Under the pieces are notes generated by a model. The model was given only the letters and a program-made list of their open reading frames with translations, searched no databases and was not told the DNA's origin. Positions 22,527 through 28,146 of a stretch of 61,548 nucleotides of DNA are shown piece by piece (position 1 is the first letter of the stretch; every line of letters begins with the position of its first letter). Source of the DNA: an uncultured Oxalobacteraceae bacterium. GTDB lineage: Bacteria > Pseudomonadota > Gammaproteobacteria > Burkholderiales > Burkholderiaceae_D. The stretch is from assembly GCA_937996605.1 (NCBI GenBank), contig CALKVB010000436.1, forward strand, positions 1-61,548. The letters are read 5' to 3'. The position numbers and the translations under genes were made by a program.

Positions 22527-23804
22527 TTACTTACTCGCAGCTTTCACCACTTCGCCCGCTTTGATCACCACTGCGACATTTTCTAAGAGGCGTACGTCTT
22601 TACTTGGATCACCCTTGACGGCGACCATATCGGCAAAACGACCTGCTTCGATGATACCGACATCTTTGCTGGCCAAGGCTTCTGCAGCATTGATCGTCGC
22701 CGCTTGAATTGCTTGTACCGGCGTCATGCCATATTTCACCATGGTGGCGAATTGTTTTGCGTTGTCGCCATGTGGGTAAATACCGGCGTCGGTACCGTAC
22801 ACCATTTTCACGCCGGCTGCGTGCGCTTTGCGGAATCCTTCGCGTTGGATGTCTGCGACTTCGCGGTCTTTACGCAAATTATCTTCAAGCACACCATTCT
22901 TTTTACCTTCCGATTGCGTGTAATCGGTGTTGTAAATGTCCATTGACAAGTAGGCGCCATGCTTCTTAGCGAGCGCAATACCTTCATCATCGATCAAACT
23001 GGCGTGCTCAATGGTGTCAATGCCAGCACGAATCGCATCCTTAATACCTGATGTGCCATGTGCATGCGCTGCCACGCGCAAGTCCCATTGATGTGCTTCC
23101 TCAGCAATGGCTTTCATTTCCGTTAGACTTAATTGCTGTTGGCCTGGTTCAGTATTGTGTGAAAACACGCCACCAGTCGCACAAATCTTGATGACTTGCG
23201 CACCATACTTACGTAATTCGCGCACACGTTTGCGGCCTTCTTCTGGGCTATCGGCGTTGTATGGGCTACGTTGATTCATCGACGGTGGGAAGAAAGTCGA
23301 GTCGCAATGACCGCCGGTAGCACCGAAGGAATACGCAGCGGTAACGATACGTGGACCACGCACTTTTCCTTCATCGATGGCCTCGCGCAGTCCTACGTCA
23401 TTCCATGCGTCTGAACCCACATTGCGTACCGTAGTGAAGCCTGCATCCAAAGTGCGGCTGGCGTGAGGAACGGTGATGATAGACCAGAAGCGATCGTTAA
23501 ATTGCAGCGTGTTATAGCCGCCATAAGTGGGATCACTATCGAGATGGACGTGCATATCGATCAAACCTGGAACCAAGGTCATACCTGCTAAATCGATTTT
23601 CTTGGTATCGGCAGCAACACTCTGTGCACCTTGCTTCACACTAACGATACGACCATCGCGCACTAAGATCTGCGGATTCGCGATCATTTTTCCTGTACGC
23701 ACATCGAGCATTTGGCTCGCGGAAATCAAAACATCAGCCGCTTGCGCATAAGCTGAAAAACTTAAAGCAGCGGCAATCGCCGTCAAAGAAAAAGCAAACT
23801 TCAT
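22527..23804 (-). CDS. Secreted amidohydrolase-superfamily peptidase (Xaa-Pro dipeptidase-like)
   Basis: Start revised to MKFAFSL (signal peptide ...AYAQA). PGLIDMHVH, GFTTVRNVG, IKICATGG, AHAHG, IEHAS, GTDAG. Confidence 0.88.
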   Translation of the reverse strand: MKFAFSLTAIAAALSFSAYAQAADVLISASQMLDVRTGKMIANPQILVRDGRIVSVKQGAQSVAADTKKIDLAGMTLVPGLIDMHVHLDSDPTYGGYNTLQFNDRFWSIITVPHASRTLDAGFTTVRNVGSDAWNDVGLREAIDEGKVRGPRIVTAAYSFGATGGHCDSTFFPPSMNQRSPYNADSPEEGRKRVRELRKYGAQVIKICATGGVFSHNTEPGQQQLSLTEMKAIAEEAHQWDLRVAAHAHGTSGIKDAIRAGIDTIEHASLIDDEGIALAKKHGAYLSMDIYNTDYTQSEGKKNGVLEDNLRKDREVADIQREGFRKAHAAGVKMVYGTDAGIYPHGDNAKQFATMVKYGMTPVQAIQAATINAAEALASKDVGIIEAGRFADMVAVKGDPSKDVRLLENVAVVIKAGEVVKAASK

Positions 23805-23940
23805 TGAGTAACTCCAGTGAGAGAAAAAATACAGCAGGTGCTGAGCGCTGCTTAGTATCGCGTTTGTATCGGGCATGGTCAAACCATAGCGCAGAATCTG
23901 ACGTACGCTACCAACAATCGAGTCATAAATGAATAAATTG

Positions 23941-23971
23941 AAAAGCAAAAAGCCCACCAAATGGCGGGCTT
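23941..23971 (-). terminator. Intrinsic terminator closing the csp 3' region
   Basis: Minus strand AAGCCCGCCAUUUGGUGGGCUUUUUGCUUUU: GC-rich stem followed by a U-tract. Confidence 0.75.
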
Positions 23972-24348
23972 CGTGAACAACAATAAGTATAAAAAAGCAT
24001 GCATCGAATTCCCATCCCACCGACGCTATCTGCGAAGTGTGTGATGTGGTCTCAAGCCCATGCTATCTGCATGGTGCCCTTGTGAAATTCAATTACGGCG
24101 GGTTCGTTCCGCTGTTCTTATTCTGTGTTGGGTGAGTTTGCCGCAACCGGTACGGCATACCGTTACACCATCTTCGCTTGCCCACACTATCTGTGTGGTG
24201 CTACACGCCGGTGAGAACGATGAGGCAAAGCCTCAATCACTTTTCTTTGATTGCGATCGATGAACTTTTGTCTTCCCAACGCTATCTGCGAAGTGGTCAA
24301 CGTCAGTGCATGATGCAATGGCGAATCTCTGTCTCAATTAAAAATTGA
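23946..24348 (-). ncRNA. Putative structured RNA or long 3'-UTR with four C-AGAUA-G hairpins
   Basis: Four ctatctg-centred inverted repeats (loops at 24027-31, 24064-68, 24188-92, 24283-87), compensatory stem changes, additional hairpins and a distal terminator. Confidence 0.6.
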
Positions 24349-24558
24349 TTACAAAACCTGAATATTGCTGGCTTTGTCGCCTTTAGGGCTAGCAGTGCGT
24401 TCAAACGAAACACGCTGATTTTCCGAAAGGCTTTTGAAACCATTGGATTGAATGTCCTGGAAATGGGCGAACAGATCCGCACCACCTGTATCTGGTGTAA
24501 TAAAACCAAAACCTTTTGCGTCGTTGAACCATTTGACGATGCCTGTTTGTTGAGTCAT
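24349..24558 (-). CDS. Cold-shock protein (CspA family)
   Basis: [15 protein letters not shown] (RNP1) and LFAHF (RNP2); 69 aa. SD gaagga. Confidence 0.97.
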
Positions 24559-24972
24559 GTTATTTCCTTCGTTGTATCGATCTAGCTGTTTTACCGGCGG
24601 CTTAATGTCGCGCAGCTAATGTTGCATTGATCTTTTTTCTTGAAGCAAAGAGGGATGAAATCATATACAAATTGAATTATGCGTATGAAGCCCATTTTGC
24701 CCGTGGACGAAATTGTCCTGTGGCACTGAGAACCAAGAGATGAAACCGAAGGAGAACAAACAGAACGACTAGAAGAGAACAGCCATGCGGAATTGGGACC
24801 AACAATATTACGACCTGATGCAAGTACAGGACGCAATATACAGGGCTTTTTGGAAATCACCTAATTATATTTTGGAAAAATGAAAAATAGTGTGAAGTTG
24901 CGAAATACCAAATTGGCCAGATGGCGGCGAACATTGAAGTTGACCGCCATACTAAACACGTACTTGAGCGTA

Positions 24973-25500
24973 TCAACGGAAGAAGTTGTATCGCGCAGTG
25001 TAAGCTATCCGCACTTCCTTGCCGAGGTTGGAGCCATCGCAAGTTATATTGGGTGCTTTTCCATCTTTAGTTGAAACACGCTGAATACTTTTTACTTGAG
25101 AAAAGATTCCAGTACCGCTGTTTGACTTCGCCTTCAGCAGCAACAAAGGAATCGCATTTGCATCGGCGCTGTCGGCGCGTGCAACGACTTCGCCAACTAC
25201 TTTACTGCCATCATTGCTTTCCCAGCTTGGTCCAGCATAGTGTTTGCCGACTACATTGCCTTGTTGGTCGAATAGTTTCGCTTCTGGCGCGAGGAAAACC
25301 CATTCATATTTATTGGAATCCTTGGCATTTGTTTTGCAAGCATAAATTTGCACGCCTTCGGCCGCAAAATCGAAAGTAAAACTTTGATCAGCGGGAGCTT
25401 TCAAAGCTTCTGGTGCTGCTTGTACGGGAGAGGTTGGAACTGTAGTGCATGCATTAAGAGTGGCAAGCATAAATGTGAGTAGACTGACTTTGTGTTTCAT
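24973..25500 (-). CDS. DUF3455-like lipoprotein
   Basis: Start revised to MKHKVSLL with lipobox LNAC. AEGVQIYAC, WVFLAPEA, GKHYAGPSW, IQRVSTKDGKAP, YTARYNF. Confidence 0.75.
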   Translation of the reverse strand: MKHKVSLLTFMLATLNACTTVPTSPVQAAPEALKAPADQSFTFDFAAEGVQIYACKTNAKDSNKYEWVFLAPEAKLFDQQGNVVGKHYAGPSWESNDGSKVVGEVVARADSADANAIPLLLLKAKSNSGTGIFSQVKSIQRVSTKDGKAPNITCDGSNLGKEVRIAYTARYNFFR

Positions 25501-25773: not shown

Positions 25774-28146
25774 ATGCAGGTTAAGCAAGCATATGTCGCT
25801 GCGATGGATAAGCCACTGACTTCCGCTCAGCGCTTAATTTTTTTTAAGCGCCTCCAGACACTAACGAATAAGATCCACGCCACCAATGCGGTGGATCAGA
25901 TCATGCTTGATCTTACCGCCGATATTTGTGATCTATTCGATTGTGATCGCCTGACCATTTATGCAATTGCGCCAGACGGCAAGAACCTTATTTCTAAAGT
26001 AAAAAAAGGATTGAATTCATTCAGAGACATACGTTTACCGATTTCTGATCAGAGTATCGCTGGCTATGTCGCTGGACATCGTGAAGCCTTGTGCATTCGT
26101 GATGTCTATGATGAGGAAGAGCTAAGGCGCGTTTCACCACAATTACATTTTCAAAAAGCGATCGATCAGAAGACTGGGTATAGAACGCGCGAGATGTTAG
26201 CTGCGCCTATTATCGAAACCAAAACAGGACTGCTGGTTGGCGTGATTCAATTTATTAATAGCCGTCATGGCGACCCTTTCACTATCATCGCACAAGAAGG
26301 TGTGAAAGAGCTATGTGAAACACTGTCGATTGCTTTTTCGCAGAAGAGTCGCGTGATTCAAATCCCGCCATCTAAGTTAAATTATTTAGTGACGGAAGGT
26401 ATTGTTTCGATTGCCGAATTTGAAGCGGCGATCGCCAGTGCGCGACTTAAGCAGTGCGACCTTGAGGATGTCTTGATCGATGAATTTCAAGTATCGCCTG
26501 AACAAATTGGGCATGCATTAGCAAAATTTTTTAATGTGCCTTATGAGCCTTTCCAAGCAGATCGCGTGATTGATGTTGAGTTGATCAAGCGGTTGAAACG
26601 CCAGTATGTCGATGAAACTGGGTGGCTCCCAGTGTCAGATGAAAAGAGCGGCATGACGGTATTAGCGCTCGACCCCGAACAAGTGAAAGCGACGCGCGTG
26701 GTGAGTATGATTTTCCCTGGCGCACATTTACATTTTAAGACCACCACTCGACGCGAATTCAAACAAACAGTTGATCAATTCTTTGGGCAAACGGCAAATA
26801 CAGGTTCTGTTGATGAACTTTTATCTGGGCTTGAAGAAGATGATGAAGAGCACTCAAATAATCAAAGTAATGAGGTGTCCGCCGCGGTAGAAAATGAATT
26901 AGTGAAATTGCTGAATAAGATTATCGTCGACGCTTATCAACAAGGTGCTTCTGATATTCATATTGAACCTCGACCCGGCAAGGAAAAAACGCTAATCCGA
27001 TTCCGTAAAGATGGCTCATTGACGCCATATATCGAAATTCCGGCCAGCTACCGCAATGCACTGCTTGCACGTATCAAGATCATGTGTGATCTCGATATCT
27101 CCGAAAAGCGCAAACCGCAAGACGGCAAAATTAAGTTCAAAAAATACGGTCCTCTCGATATTGAATTGCGGGTGGCGACCATCCCCTCAGCCGGTGGTAT
27201 GGAAGACGTGGTGATGCGTATTTTGGCGGCGGGGGAACCAATCCCGCTCGAGAAATTGGGGATCTTGCCGCACAACCTCAAACGCCTCAAAGACGTGGTT
27301 GATAAACCGTATGGTATTTTCTTTGTATGTGGACCAACCGGCTCAGGAAAGACCACCACTTTGCATTCGGTTTTACATTATCTCAACCGACCCGAAACCA
27401 AAATTTGGACTGCGGAAGATCCAGTAGAAATTACGCAAAAAGGCTTACGCCAGGTTCAAGTCAATCGTAAAGCGGGGATGGATTTTGCTACAGTGATGCG
27501 CGCCTTTTTGCGTGCCGATCCTGATGTGATTATGGTTGGCGAAATGCGCGATAAAGAAACCGTATCGATTGGTCTAGAGGCTTCACTAACAGGCCACTTA
27601 GTGTTCGCTACTTTACACACCAATAGCGCACCAGAATCGATCATACGTTTGCTGGATATGGGCATGGACCCATTTAACTTTGCCGATGCTTTGCTTGGTA
27701 TCTTGGCGCAACGTTTAGCGAAGCGTTTATGCAGCAATTGCAAAGTCGCTTACCAACCAAGTAAAGAAGAAATCGCGAGTCTGCTCAATGAATATTGCGC
27801 AGAGCTATTACCAACCACGGAATTTCAACAAAGCCCTGAAGCGGCAAAGTTAAAAGTACTCAAACACTGGATGCGTAGCTATGGCGATGAAAAAGGTCAA
27901 TTGACTTTATATCGCGCGCAAGGATGTGATAAATGTAGTGGCGGTTATAAAGGTCGTGTTGGTCTCCATGAATTAATGGTAGGAACCGACCCAGTCAAGA
28001 AGTTAATCCAAGAGCACGCACGCGTCGCACAACTCTTTACTGCGGCACTCGAAGACGGCATGTTGACCTTGAAGATGGATGGCATAGAAAAGGTCTTGTC
28101 GGGCATCACCGATATGAAGCAGGTGCGCCTGGTATGCATTAAATAG
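25774..28146 (+). CDS. GspE/PilB-family secretion/pilus ATPase with N-terminal GAF domain
   Basis: GAF (SIAGYVA...DVY...DQKTGYRTREMLAAPI...VIQFINS), ASDIHIEP, GPTGSGKTT, AEDPVE, LRADPDVIMVGEMRD, TLHTNSA, two CxxC. Confidence 0.92.
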   Translation: MQVKQAYVAAMDKPLTSAQRLIFFKRLQTLTNKIHATNAVDQIMLDLTADICDLFDCDRLTIYAIAPDGKNLISKVKKGLNSFRDIRLPISDQSIAGYVAGHREALCIRDVYDEEELRRVSPQLHFQKAIDQKTGYRTREMLAAPIIETKTGLLVGVIQFINSRHGDPFTIIAQEGVKELCETLSIAFSQKSRVIQIPPSKLNYLVTEGIVSIAEFEAAIASARLKQCDLEDVLIDEFQVSPEQIGHALAKFFNVPYEPFQADRVIDVELIKRLKRQYVDETGWLPVSDEKSGMTVLALDPEQVKATRVVSMIFPGAHLHFKTTTRREFKQTVDQFFGQTANTGSVDELLSGLEEDDEEHSNNQSNEVSAAVENELVKLLNKIIVDAYQQGASDIHIEPRPGKEKTLIRFRKDGSLTPYIEIPASYRNALLARIKIMCDLDISEKRKPQDGKIKFKKYGPLDIELRVATIPSAGGMEDVVMRILAAGEPIPLEKLGILPHNLKRLKDVVDKPYGIFFVCGPTGSGKTTTLHSVLHYLNRPETKIWTAEDPVEITQKGLRQVQVNRKAGMDFATVMRAFLRADPDVIMVGEMRDKETVSIGLEASLTGHLVFATLHTNSAPESIIRLLDMGMDPFNFADALLGILAQRLAKRLCSNCKVAYQPSKEEIASLLNEYCAELLPTTEFQQSPEAAKLKVLKHWMRSYGDEKGQLTLYRAQGCDKCSGGYKGRVGLHELMVGTDPVKKLIQEHARVAQLFTAALEDGMLTLKMDGIEKVLSGITDMKQVRLVCIK

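Follow-up and report, generated by a model that had tools for sequence, protein, structure and literature searches.

A short RNA hairpin that recurs four times behind a cold-shock protein (csp) gene of an uncultured Oxalobacteraceae bacterium is a real and new RNA motif, and by its sequence it probably mimics the anticodon arm of tRNA-Ile(GAU). Its layout consists of a lower stem, a single bulged A, six base pairs and an AGAUA loop, and it occurs in three genomic settings: the tails of accessory csp genes, stand-alone small RNA genes and viral contigs. Because this tRNA-like hairpin recurs in the free small RNAs of related bacteria and in phages, it is likely, to judge from the same sequence data, to serve as a decoy, drawing off a protein that either reads tRNA-Ile(GAU) or attacks it. 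The match to the tRNA-Ile arm and the phage copies go beyond the original prediction, which had proposed a CsrB-like protein sponge with the cold-shock protein as a possible ligand.

The csp tail and its four hairpins

Within the window, by which we mean the whole stretch of 61,548 nucleotides that was analysed, the element is a structured 3' RNA tail on the minus strand (about 23940-24348), between the stop codon of csp and its terminator. The gene (24349-24558, minus strand) encodes a 69-residue protein of the accessory Csp clade (PF00313, E 3e-27), and the transcript would end at an intrinsic terminator on the same strand (23940-23972; predicted at 23972-23949), which forms invariant columns in the alignment of relatives. 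Read from csp toward the terminator, the four minus-strand hairpins (originally lettered D, C, B and A) are hairpin 1 (24271-24299; 26.7 bits by covariance model), with the bulged A, the AGAUA loop and a tandem mismatch in its upper stem; hairpin 2 (24176-24204; 33.8 bits); hairpin 3 (24052-24080; 39 bits), which is nearest the consensus and identical to positions 24-45 of the host tRNA-Ile at 15 of 22 positions; and hairpin 4 (24015-24043; 29 bits), whose predicted fold is the weakest. In the ensemble of the whole tail, hairpins 2 and 3 form at ~1.0, hairpin 1 at 0.66 and hairpin 4 at only 0.2. A conserved internal-loop module (24163-24217, minus strand), in which 24207-24217 faces 24163-24175, encloses hairpin 2 and is repeated without an AGAUA cap in many relatives.

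The four CTATCTG sites of the original prediction do lie at 24026, 24063, 24187 and 24282, and its description of the stems, of the 17 nt that hairpins A and D share, of the one bulge and of the two compensatory swaps by which B and C differ is correct. The span that it gave, 24018-24296, holds the hairpins but falls short of the larger element, and its 1-2-2-1 order of hairpin types is not kept in relatives. As a 7-mer, CTATCTG has five matches in the window against a chance mean of 4.8; the csp-tail cluster is the sole site in the 4.99-Mb genome with at least three same-strand copies per 500 nt. Four copies of the closed pentaloop are observed, while 2000 dinucleotide shuffles of the 409-nt tail gave at most two copies of any closed pentaloop. 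When window and genome are searched with the covariance model, exactly four clear copies of the hairpin appear, all at the csp tail. Compared with shuffles, the tail folds with a z of -4.4 on the csp-sense strand and -2.9 on the other.

The csp tail is also present in RNA libraries, in keeping with the transcription that had been proposed. Five metatranscriptome runs, each from a different study, yield near-identical contigs that span parts of 24001-24805 (eight runs were examined, three of them without a hairpin piece), and three of these contigs join the csp coding region to the hairpins; strand, ends and level cannot be read from such contigs, and DNA carry-over in the libraries is possible. 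The flanks of the locus have next to no RNA-contig cover, a silence that is no evidence, since the runs were picked by their match to the csp stretch and no DNA run covered it. Runs X8 and X10 hold csp fragments of other organisms only. Upstream of the coding region lies a long csp 5' leader (24559-24805, minus strand), its extent taken from RNA contigs ending at 24805, 24803 and 24787; this leader is covered by RNA contigs, is similar in several genus loci and has no Rfam cspA match.

That the element works as DNA, be it as an operator, a REP-like repeat or a single-strand hairpin, is very improbable. The hairpins are near-palindromic and the strand of the RNA contigs is unreadable, as such a reading would allow, but they contain G.U and C.A pairs, keep a fixed orientation to csp and come with promoters and terminators. 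Each genome has a single locus with no dispersed copies, and the genome-wide count here, four copies at one locus, is not that of a REP-like DNA repeat, the outcome that would have spoken against the original prediction.

The neighbouring genes in the window, for an amidohydrolase (22527-23804), a DUF3455 protein (24973-25500) and a GAF and type II secretion ATPase protein (25774-28146), are common to only some genus loci. The first 600 bases of contig C286 of the same genome hold a dense repeat cluster of one closed pentaloop, in a different region.

Architecture, covariation and distribution

For 110 hairpins, chosen by loop and closing pair alone and including related sequences that are not independent, covariation is 0.413, as against 0.163 in shuffled and at most 0.173 in slid controls; pairing is kept in 87.6% of cells, and changes on both sides are seen in 8 of 10 pairs. 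Together with the genus loci, these values bear out the view of a conserved, structured RNA whose loop is invariant and whose stems covary. Of 154 loops in csp-tail hairpins, 150 read CAGAUAG, three CGGAUAG and one CAGACAG. Since loop and bulge are invariant while the mid-stem needs only its length, the ligand would be a protein.

Four or five hairpins stand ahead of the terminator in 29 of the 30 best csp loci of the genus (chosen by csp match, the window's own included), the remaining one ending at a contig edge, and the tails are modular and 350-750 nt long. Hosts in general carry one to six hairpins on a branched RNA. A strict pattern is matched in 117 of 250 genomes of the family (Oxalobacteraceae-type), including one match inside a reading frame and one in G135, which is unpublished; the reversed control gives 2, and outside the family 1 of 292 genomes of other families has a match. 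Among the matches listed, the motif is in its proper setting in Undibacterium, Massilia, Duganella, Pseudoduganella, Janthinobacterium, Collimonas, Herbaspirillum, Noviherbaspirillum, Telluria and Rugamonas. A lower stem and terminator accompany it in 47 of 53 Oxalobacteraceae-like loci but in none of 27 others, among the 80 matches listed. Contig L154, labelled Bifidobacterium, was grouped as Oxalobacteraceae-like because it carries the same csp; with its Oxalobacteraceae-type csp and hairpins, it is probably mis-binned. In many genera of the family that have the same tRNA-Ile, the RNA is absent even by model search; this counts against a decoy, and it makes the motif an accessory one.

As originally supposed, no described RNA family accounts for the motif: neither the window nor 40 related loci have a match in Rfam 15 at the gathering threshold, and a search relaxed to E 10 adds nothing beyond terminator-level noise. 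We found no description of the motif in the literature, where candidate lists in supplements, or collections of motifs other than Rfam, might include the stand-alone RNA without a name; the available text of a Herbaspirillum small-RNA survey (PMC6337395) does not mention it.

CsrB and RsmZ, the sponges that sequester CsrA and RsmA, present repeated GGA loops on variable stems. The comparison that had been drawn with them holds for the design, in that several identical loops sit on variable stems of one RNA, which may have its own promoter and terminator. Unlike these sponges, the motif has no GGA loops: its loop is AGAUA, and six pairs beneath the loop a bulged A is conserved. CsrA (PF02599) was not found in the window's genome, which is 90.65% complete.

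Resemblance to the anticodon arm of tRNA-Ile(GAU)

The hairpin aligns in register with positions 24-45 of the host tRNA-Ile(GAU) arm, a likeness that was first noticed by eye, so that the tests given here came after the fact. A stem-only profile of 114 csp-tail hairpins, with the loop excluded, ranks tRNA-Ile(GAU) first of 33 tRNAs (14.3 versus 6.1 bits). With a profile of 153 unique hairpins, the tRNA-Ile arm is the top plus-strand window of the 6.4-kb rRNA operon (14.5 versus 7.8), and this window also has GAUA at 34-37, positions that were not scored; random tRNA-like arms attain the operon-scan score with P 0.0025. The 790 loop of 16S rRNA is likewise an AGAUA loop. Mimicry of that loop was considered and dropped, as it is absent from the top windows of the operon scan.

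The upper stem carries G31-C39 in 139 of the 153 hairpins. This is the tRNA-Ile allele of the family, whereas C31-G39 is the allele in most other families of the order (14.5 versus 2.8 bits). Pair 30-40, U.G in the tRNA, is often C.A (51 of 153) or U-A in the hairpin. When the triplet is left free, viral matches have GAT in 57 of 68 cases; mimicry of further tRNAs in this frame was rejected, since the other triplets (11 of 68) are scattered. Versions with more distant tRNA-Ile stems were also set aside, with matches in 8 of 401 genomes of the class, all single, and viral counts of 2 and 39, about chance.

Several features count against the resemblance. The window copies are identical to the tRNA-Ile arm at only 12-15 of 22 positions, tandem mismatches absent from the tRNA are tolerated in the upper stem (U.U at 29-41 in 17 of 153), and the phage copies L465 and L517 have the C31-G39 allele of other families, which may or may not be that of their hosts' tRNA. 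The loop differs from that of the tRNA at three fixed positions: C32 and G38 stand where the tRNA has U32-A38, and A33 replaces the universal U33. Nor is there a cloverleaf: acceptor, D and T arms were not found, the hairpins have no RF00005 match, and ARAGORN calls neighbouring tRNAs and not the hairpin. Elsewhere in the window's genome, contigs C442, C545 and C671 carry divergent extra tRNAs (Pro, His, Tyr and two Arg), possibly phage-derived.

Host settings and the adjoining cold-shock protein

The link to a single Csp clade that had been anticipated is borne out by the csp genes of the hosts, in which hairpins follow 8 of 25 accessory genes (11 if three tails shortened by the terminator rule are added) and none of 15 core genes. 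The Csp of the window belongs to the accessory clade by its HFQDI and KGDKA motifs, as opposed to HFSAI and KGKQA in core Csp, and the clade as a whole is changed at RNA-binding positions (HF[QGK]DI, KG[DE]KA). In a set of 120 metagenome loci whose hairpins pair, 35 lie after an accessory csp, 23 adjoin an IF1 paralogue and 42 have a promoter palindrome. The stand-alone genes are 150-280 nt long, with a promoter-like site and a terminator. They occur in genera g29, g31, g36 and g67, in none of which the accessory Csp clade was found with this query; in genomes G064, G123 and G240 the best Csp matches are core Csp. These stand-alone genes with promoter and terminator, some of them facing a convergent gene, argue for action in trans, and since both stand-alone and phage copies exist, such action would be independent of the adjoining Csp.

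The data bear directly on the sponge reading, in which the RNA, built on the CsrB plan, would titrate a cold-shock protein or some other OB-fold protein able to read AGAUA, and the tRNA likeness would be a coincidence or a trace of origin. Lin28-type proteins do read GAU motifs, and the restriction of the hairpins, among csp genes, to those of a clade altered at its RNA-binding positions would fit such a ligand, as would the IF1 paralogue at 23 of the 120 loci. Against it stand the copies in the four genera in which the accessory clade was not found, and the window's genome, in which only a normal IF1 and no such paralogue was seen; the match to the tRNA-Ile stem and the place of some copies inside phage tRNA arrays are left unexplained. 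We regard this reading as rather unlikely. The idea of a sponge as such stands, while Csp as its ligand is weakened: the adjoining Csp is unlikely to be a required partner, because the hairpin stands alone where the clade was not found, and in phages.

Several features surround the host copies. In L060, L151, L162 and L175 a 7-3-7 palindrome, likely a regulator site, lies just 5' of the -10 element of the stand-alone promoter. Among the promoter regions of L035, L036 and L041, one Collimonas-type copy has two 5-nt direct repeats, 11 bases apart, that resemble a Pho box. In Massilia-type genomes the RNA is followed by the IF1 paralogue, whose tail is rich in arginine (L070:1142-1399, L166:1479-1742). 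No toxin gene is conserved next to the host copies, the downstream genes of which differ in kind and strand.

Phage copies

At least 68 viral contigs carry the hairpin with the G31-C39 pattern, and further ones have C31-G39. The typical viral order is a Q/AlpA-like zinc-finger gene, a promoter and a leader with the hairpin just ahead of the terminator, the hairpin thus lying between a Q-type gene and a terminator on the same strand; lower stem and terminator are present in 55 of the 68 copies. Of the 79 contigs that encode the Q-like protein, at least 32 also carry the hairpin, by hand count. That gene (L081:804-1361) has 213 relatives in viral contigs, and it was named by fold search alone, as sequence searches of Pfam, PHROGs and the PDB did not name it. 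A model of the zinc-finger protein (pLDDT 78), searched against 48,161 chains, has AlpA (Z 8.2, rmsd 4.2, 129 aligned) and lambda Q (Z 6.5, rmsd 4.9, 95 aligned) as its best matches, with Z scores that are middling for a helical protein and that count against the decoy reading. In lambdoid phages the late-leader position is transcribed in the lysogen, according to the available text of PMC7547250. Four of five complete phage genomes tested are without a tyrosine integrase, and the same four are without a serine recombinase.

Some phage copies lie within a group of tRNA genes or immediately ahead of one, or else precede the gene for the terminase small subunit; in L550 and L551 the hairpin is 9-10 nt ahead of a tRNA gene. 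A tRNA lies within 1.5 kb at 21 of the 68 viral loci, in no case tRNA-Ile(GAT); nor does tRNA-Ile(GAT) lie within 1.5 kb in Q-like phages with or without the hairpin, which gives no hint either way of an exchange between the two. Matches in named phage and plasmid collections are terminators or tRNAs, not the hairpin, with none in the FoX1 stretch. A second covarying late-leader stem, with or without the AGAUA hairpin, is seen at L084:1385-1480 and in L290, L294, L307, L310 and L316, and has no Rfam match. Further structured non-coding elements lie 5' or 3' of the hairpin in integrase-less phages (L549:1520-1640, L087 and L548), which suggests small-RNA clusters.

The position of the hairpin shortly before an intrinsic terminator, in the viral and Oxalobacteraceae-like proportions given above for the matches listed, and directly before a tRNA in some phages, is what one would expect of a cis element near RNA 3' ends that controls stability, processing or termination. 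Such a role is improbable all the same: the stand-alone RNAs, with little else in them and facing a convergent gene, offer no cis target, and four to six scattered copies exceed what the protection of an end would need.

A putative decoy and its possible partners

Because the hairpin matches the tRNA-Ile arm, its ligand would be a protein that reads this arm, and two kinds fit: type-1 isoleucyl-tRNA synthetase (IleRS), and a tRNA nuclease or toxin. Either might also fail to bind as a reader of tRNA, since A33 and G38 abolish conserved features of the anticodon loop.

In the first case, the hairpin would be a pre-shaped ligand of type-1 IleRS, by which the RNA titrates the enzyme, lowers charging and tunes the stringent response, or else gains a stability factor. 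According to the available text on the S. aureus IleRS1 complex, base-specific contacts are made at A35 only, positions 32 and 33 face the solvent and U36 turns into the loop (PMC11685878), and U36 contacts U33, as the accessible part of a further paper has it (PMC13752280). The changes in the hairpin would suit IleRS, as the altered positions are unread and A33 could pair with U36. The type-1 zinc finger is present in all 28 family IleRS proteins read, and the thrS operator is a precedent for an arm mimic bound by a synthetase (PMC9976931, available text). On the other hand, the same text gives t6A37 as a strong determinant for bacterial-type IleRS, and G34 is nearly invariant in the hairpin, yet IleRS1 reads it through backbone and stacking. 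No such hairpin precedes ileS in the window's genome, at 28 family loci or in 32 leaders from other phyla; the IleRS type is the same in genera with and without the RNA; and slower charging is ill-suited to the late leaders of integrase-less phages. We hold IleRS to be an unlikely partner, though a less doubtful one than an OB-fold protein.

Three other leads were set aside. The ileS leaders of Bacteroidota and three other genomes held no conserved mimic, the four PF08264 matches for a free anticodon-binding domain in the window's genome all fall in long, synthetase-sized frames, and ProQ was not found in that genome.

Our favoured, if tentative, reading is that the motif is a trans-acting decoy, a locked anticodon arm that would guard translation from a nuclease or toxin targeting tRNA-Ile. 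The recognised face would correspond to tRNA positions 25-31, 34-37 and 39-44. With C32-G38 and A33 the loop would be shut to five bases and the U-turn gone, making decoding impossible and probably resisting cutting, while an extra C25-G44 pair and the lower stem may steady the arm without the rest of the tRNA, A26 being left bulged. Hosts would make their one to six copies on the branched RNA after an accessory csp or from its own promoter, and phages a single copy, in the late-promoter leader (in lambdoid phages even in the lysogen) or within tRNA arrays. A nuclease or toxin so bound would be kept off tRNA-Ile, and translation would continue in stress or phage infection. That the titrated protein would be an enzyme harming tRNA-Ile is suggested by the neighbours (Csp, the IF1 paralogue, phage tRNAs and late genes), all of which serve continued translation. 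Phage tRNAs with changed anticodon loops counter tRNA-cutting defences, according to the available text of three reports (PMC10264068, PMC12409363, PMC13056530); no nuclease of tRNA-Ile(GAU) was found in the literature, the accessible parts of these reports included, which counts against the decoy.

As a decoy RNA, the motif would belong to a broadly known class; its bait would be a tRNA arm, and phages would use it alongside their hosts. Pseudo-ToxI and RNA anti-CRISPRs are phage small RNAs that mimic the shape of a host RNA and act as decoys. Unlike these, the motif would copy a tRNA arm, and arrays of the putative decoy are encoded by the hosts themselves. It also differs from type III antitoxins (ToxI), as its hairpins are irregularly spaced and no conserved toxin gene lies downstream.

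Closer in form is the E. coli thrS operator, in which, as far as the available text of PMC9976931 goes, more than one hairpin copies the anticodon arm of one tRNA without acceptor, D or T arm. The motif shares with it the copy of a cognate anticodon arm, by sequence and register only. The operator, bound by ThrRS, acts in cis in the synthetase's own leader, whereas the motif has a closed loop of five bases and does not precede ileS; its places are 3' tails, free small RNAs and phage genomes. The StxS and pR' leader RNAs of lambdoid phages (PMC7547250, available text) likewise lie between the late promoter of a Q-type gene and a terminator; StxS, however, is an Hfq-bound base-pairing RNA, and the motif is a structure common to phages and host chromosomes. 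Loop-altered phage tRNAs, too, are found in phage tRNA arrays and are changed at positions around the anticodon, in the accessible parts of PMC10264068 and PMC12409363. The motif, being no tRNA and so neither charged nor decoding, could only distract an enzyme and not replace its target.

Implications

With the motif, a large group of bacteria gains a new RNA family, described here from a genome in which CsrA was not found, and the RNA offers a direct bait for naming its protein partner. Some of its hosts, Janthinobacterium, Massilia and Duganella, are harmless bacteria of soil and water that grow in culture. Were that partner IleRS, the RNA would be a trans-acting regulator of an aminoacyl-tRNA synthetase.

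Among anti-phage and toxin effectors, enzymes that cut tRNA form a major class, which phages are known to answer with resistant tRNAs or repair enzymes. Bacteria and their phages could plausibly share a free-standing, locked copy of one tRNA's anticodon arm which, acting in trans, would disarm a defence or toxin that cuts tRNA. If the decoy reading is true, an RNA of 25 nt would be a different phage answer to tRNA cutting and would point to an undescribed enzyme directed against tRNA-Ile(GAU). The motif would then be an anti-nuclease made of RNA, shielding a tRNA though not itself a tRNA, and serving its hosts as a multi-copy stress RNA and its phages as a counter-defence.
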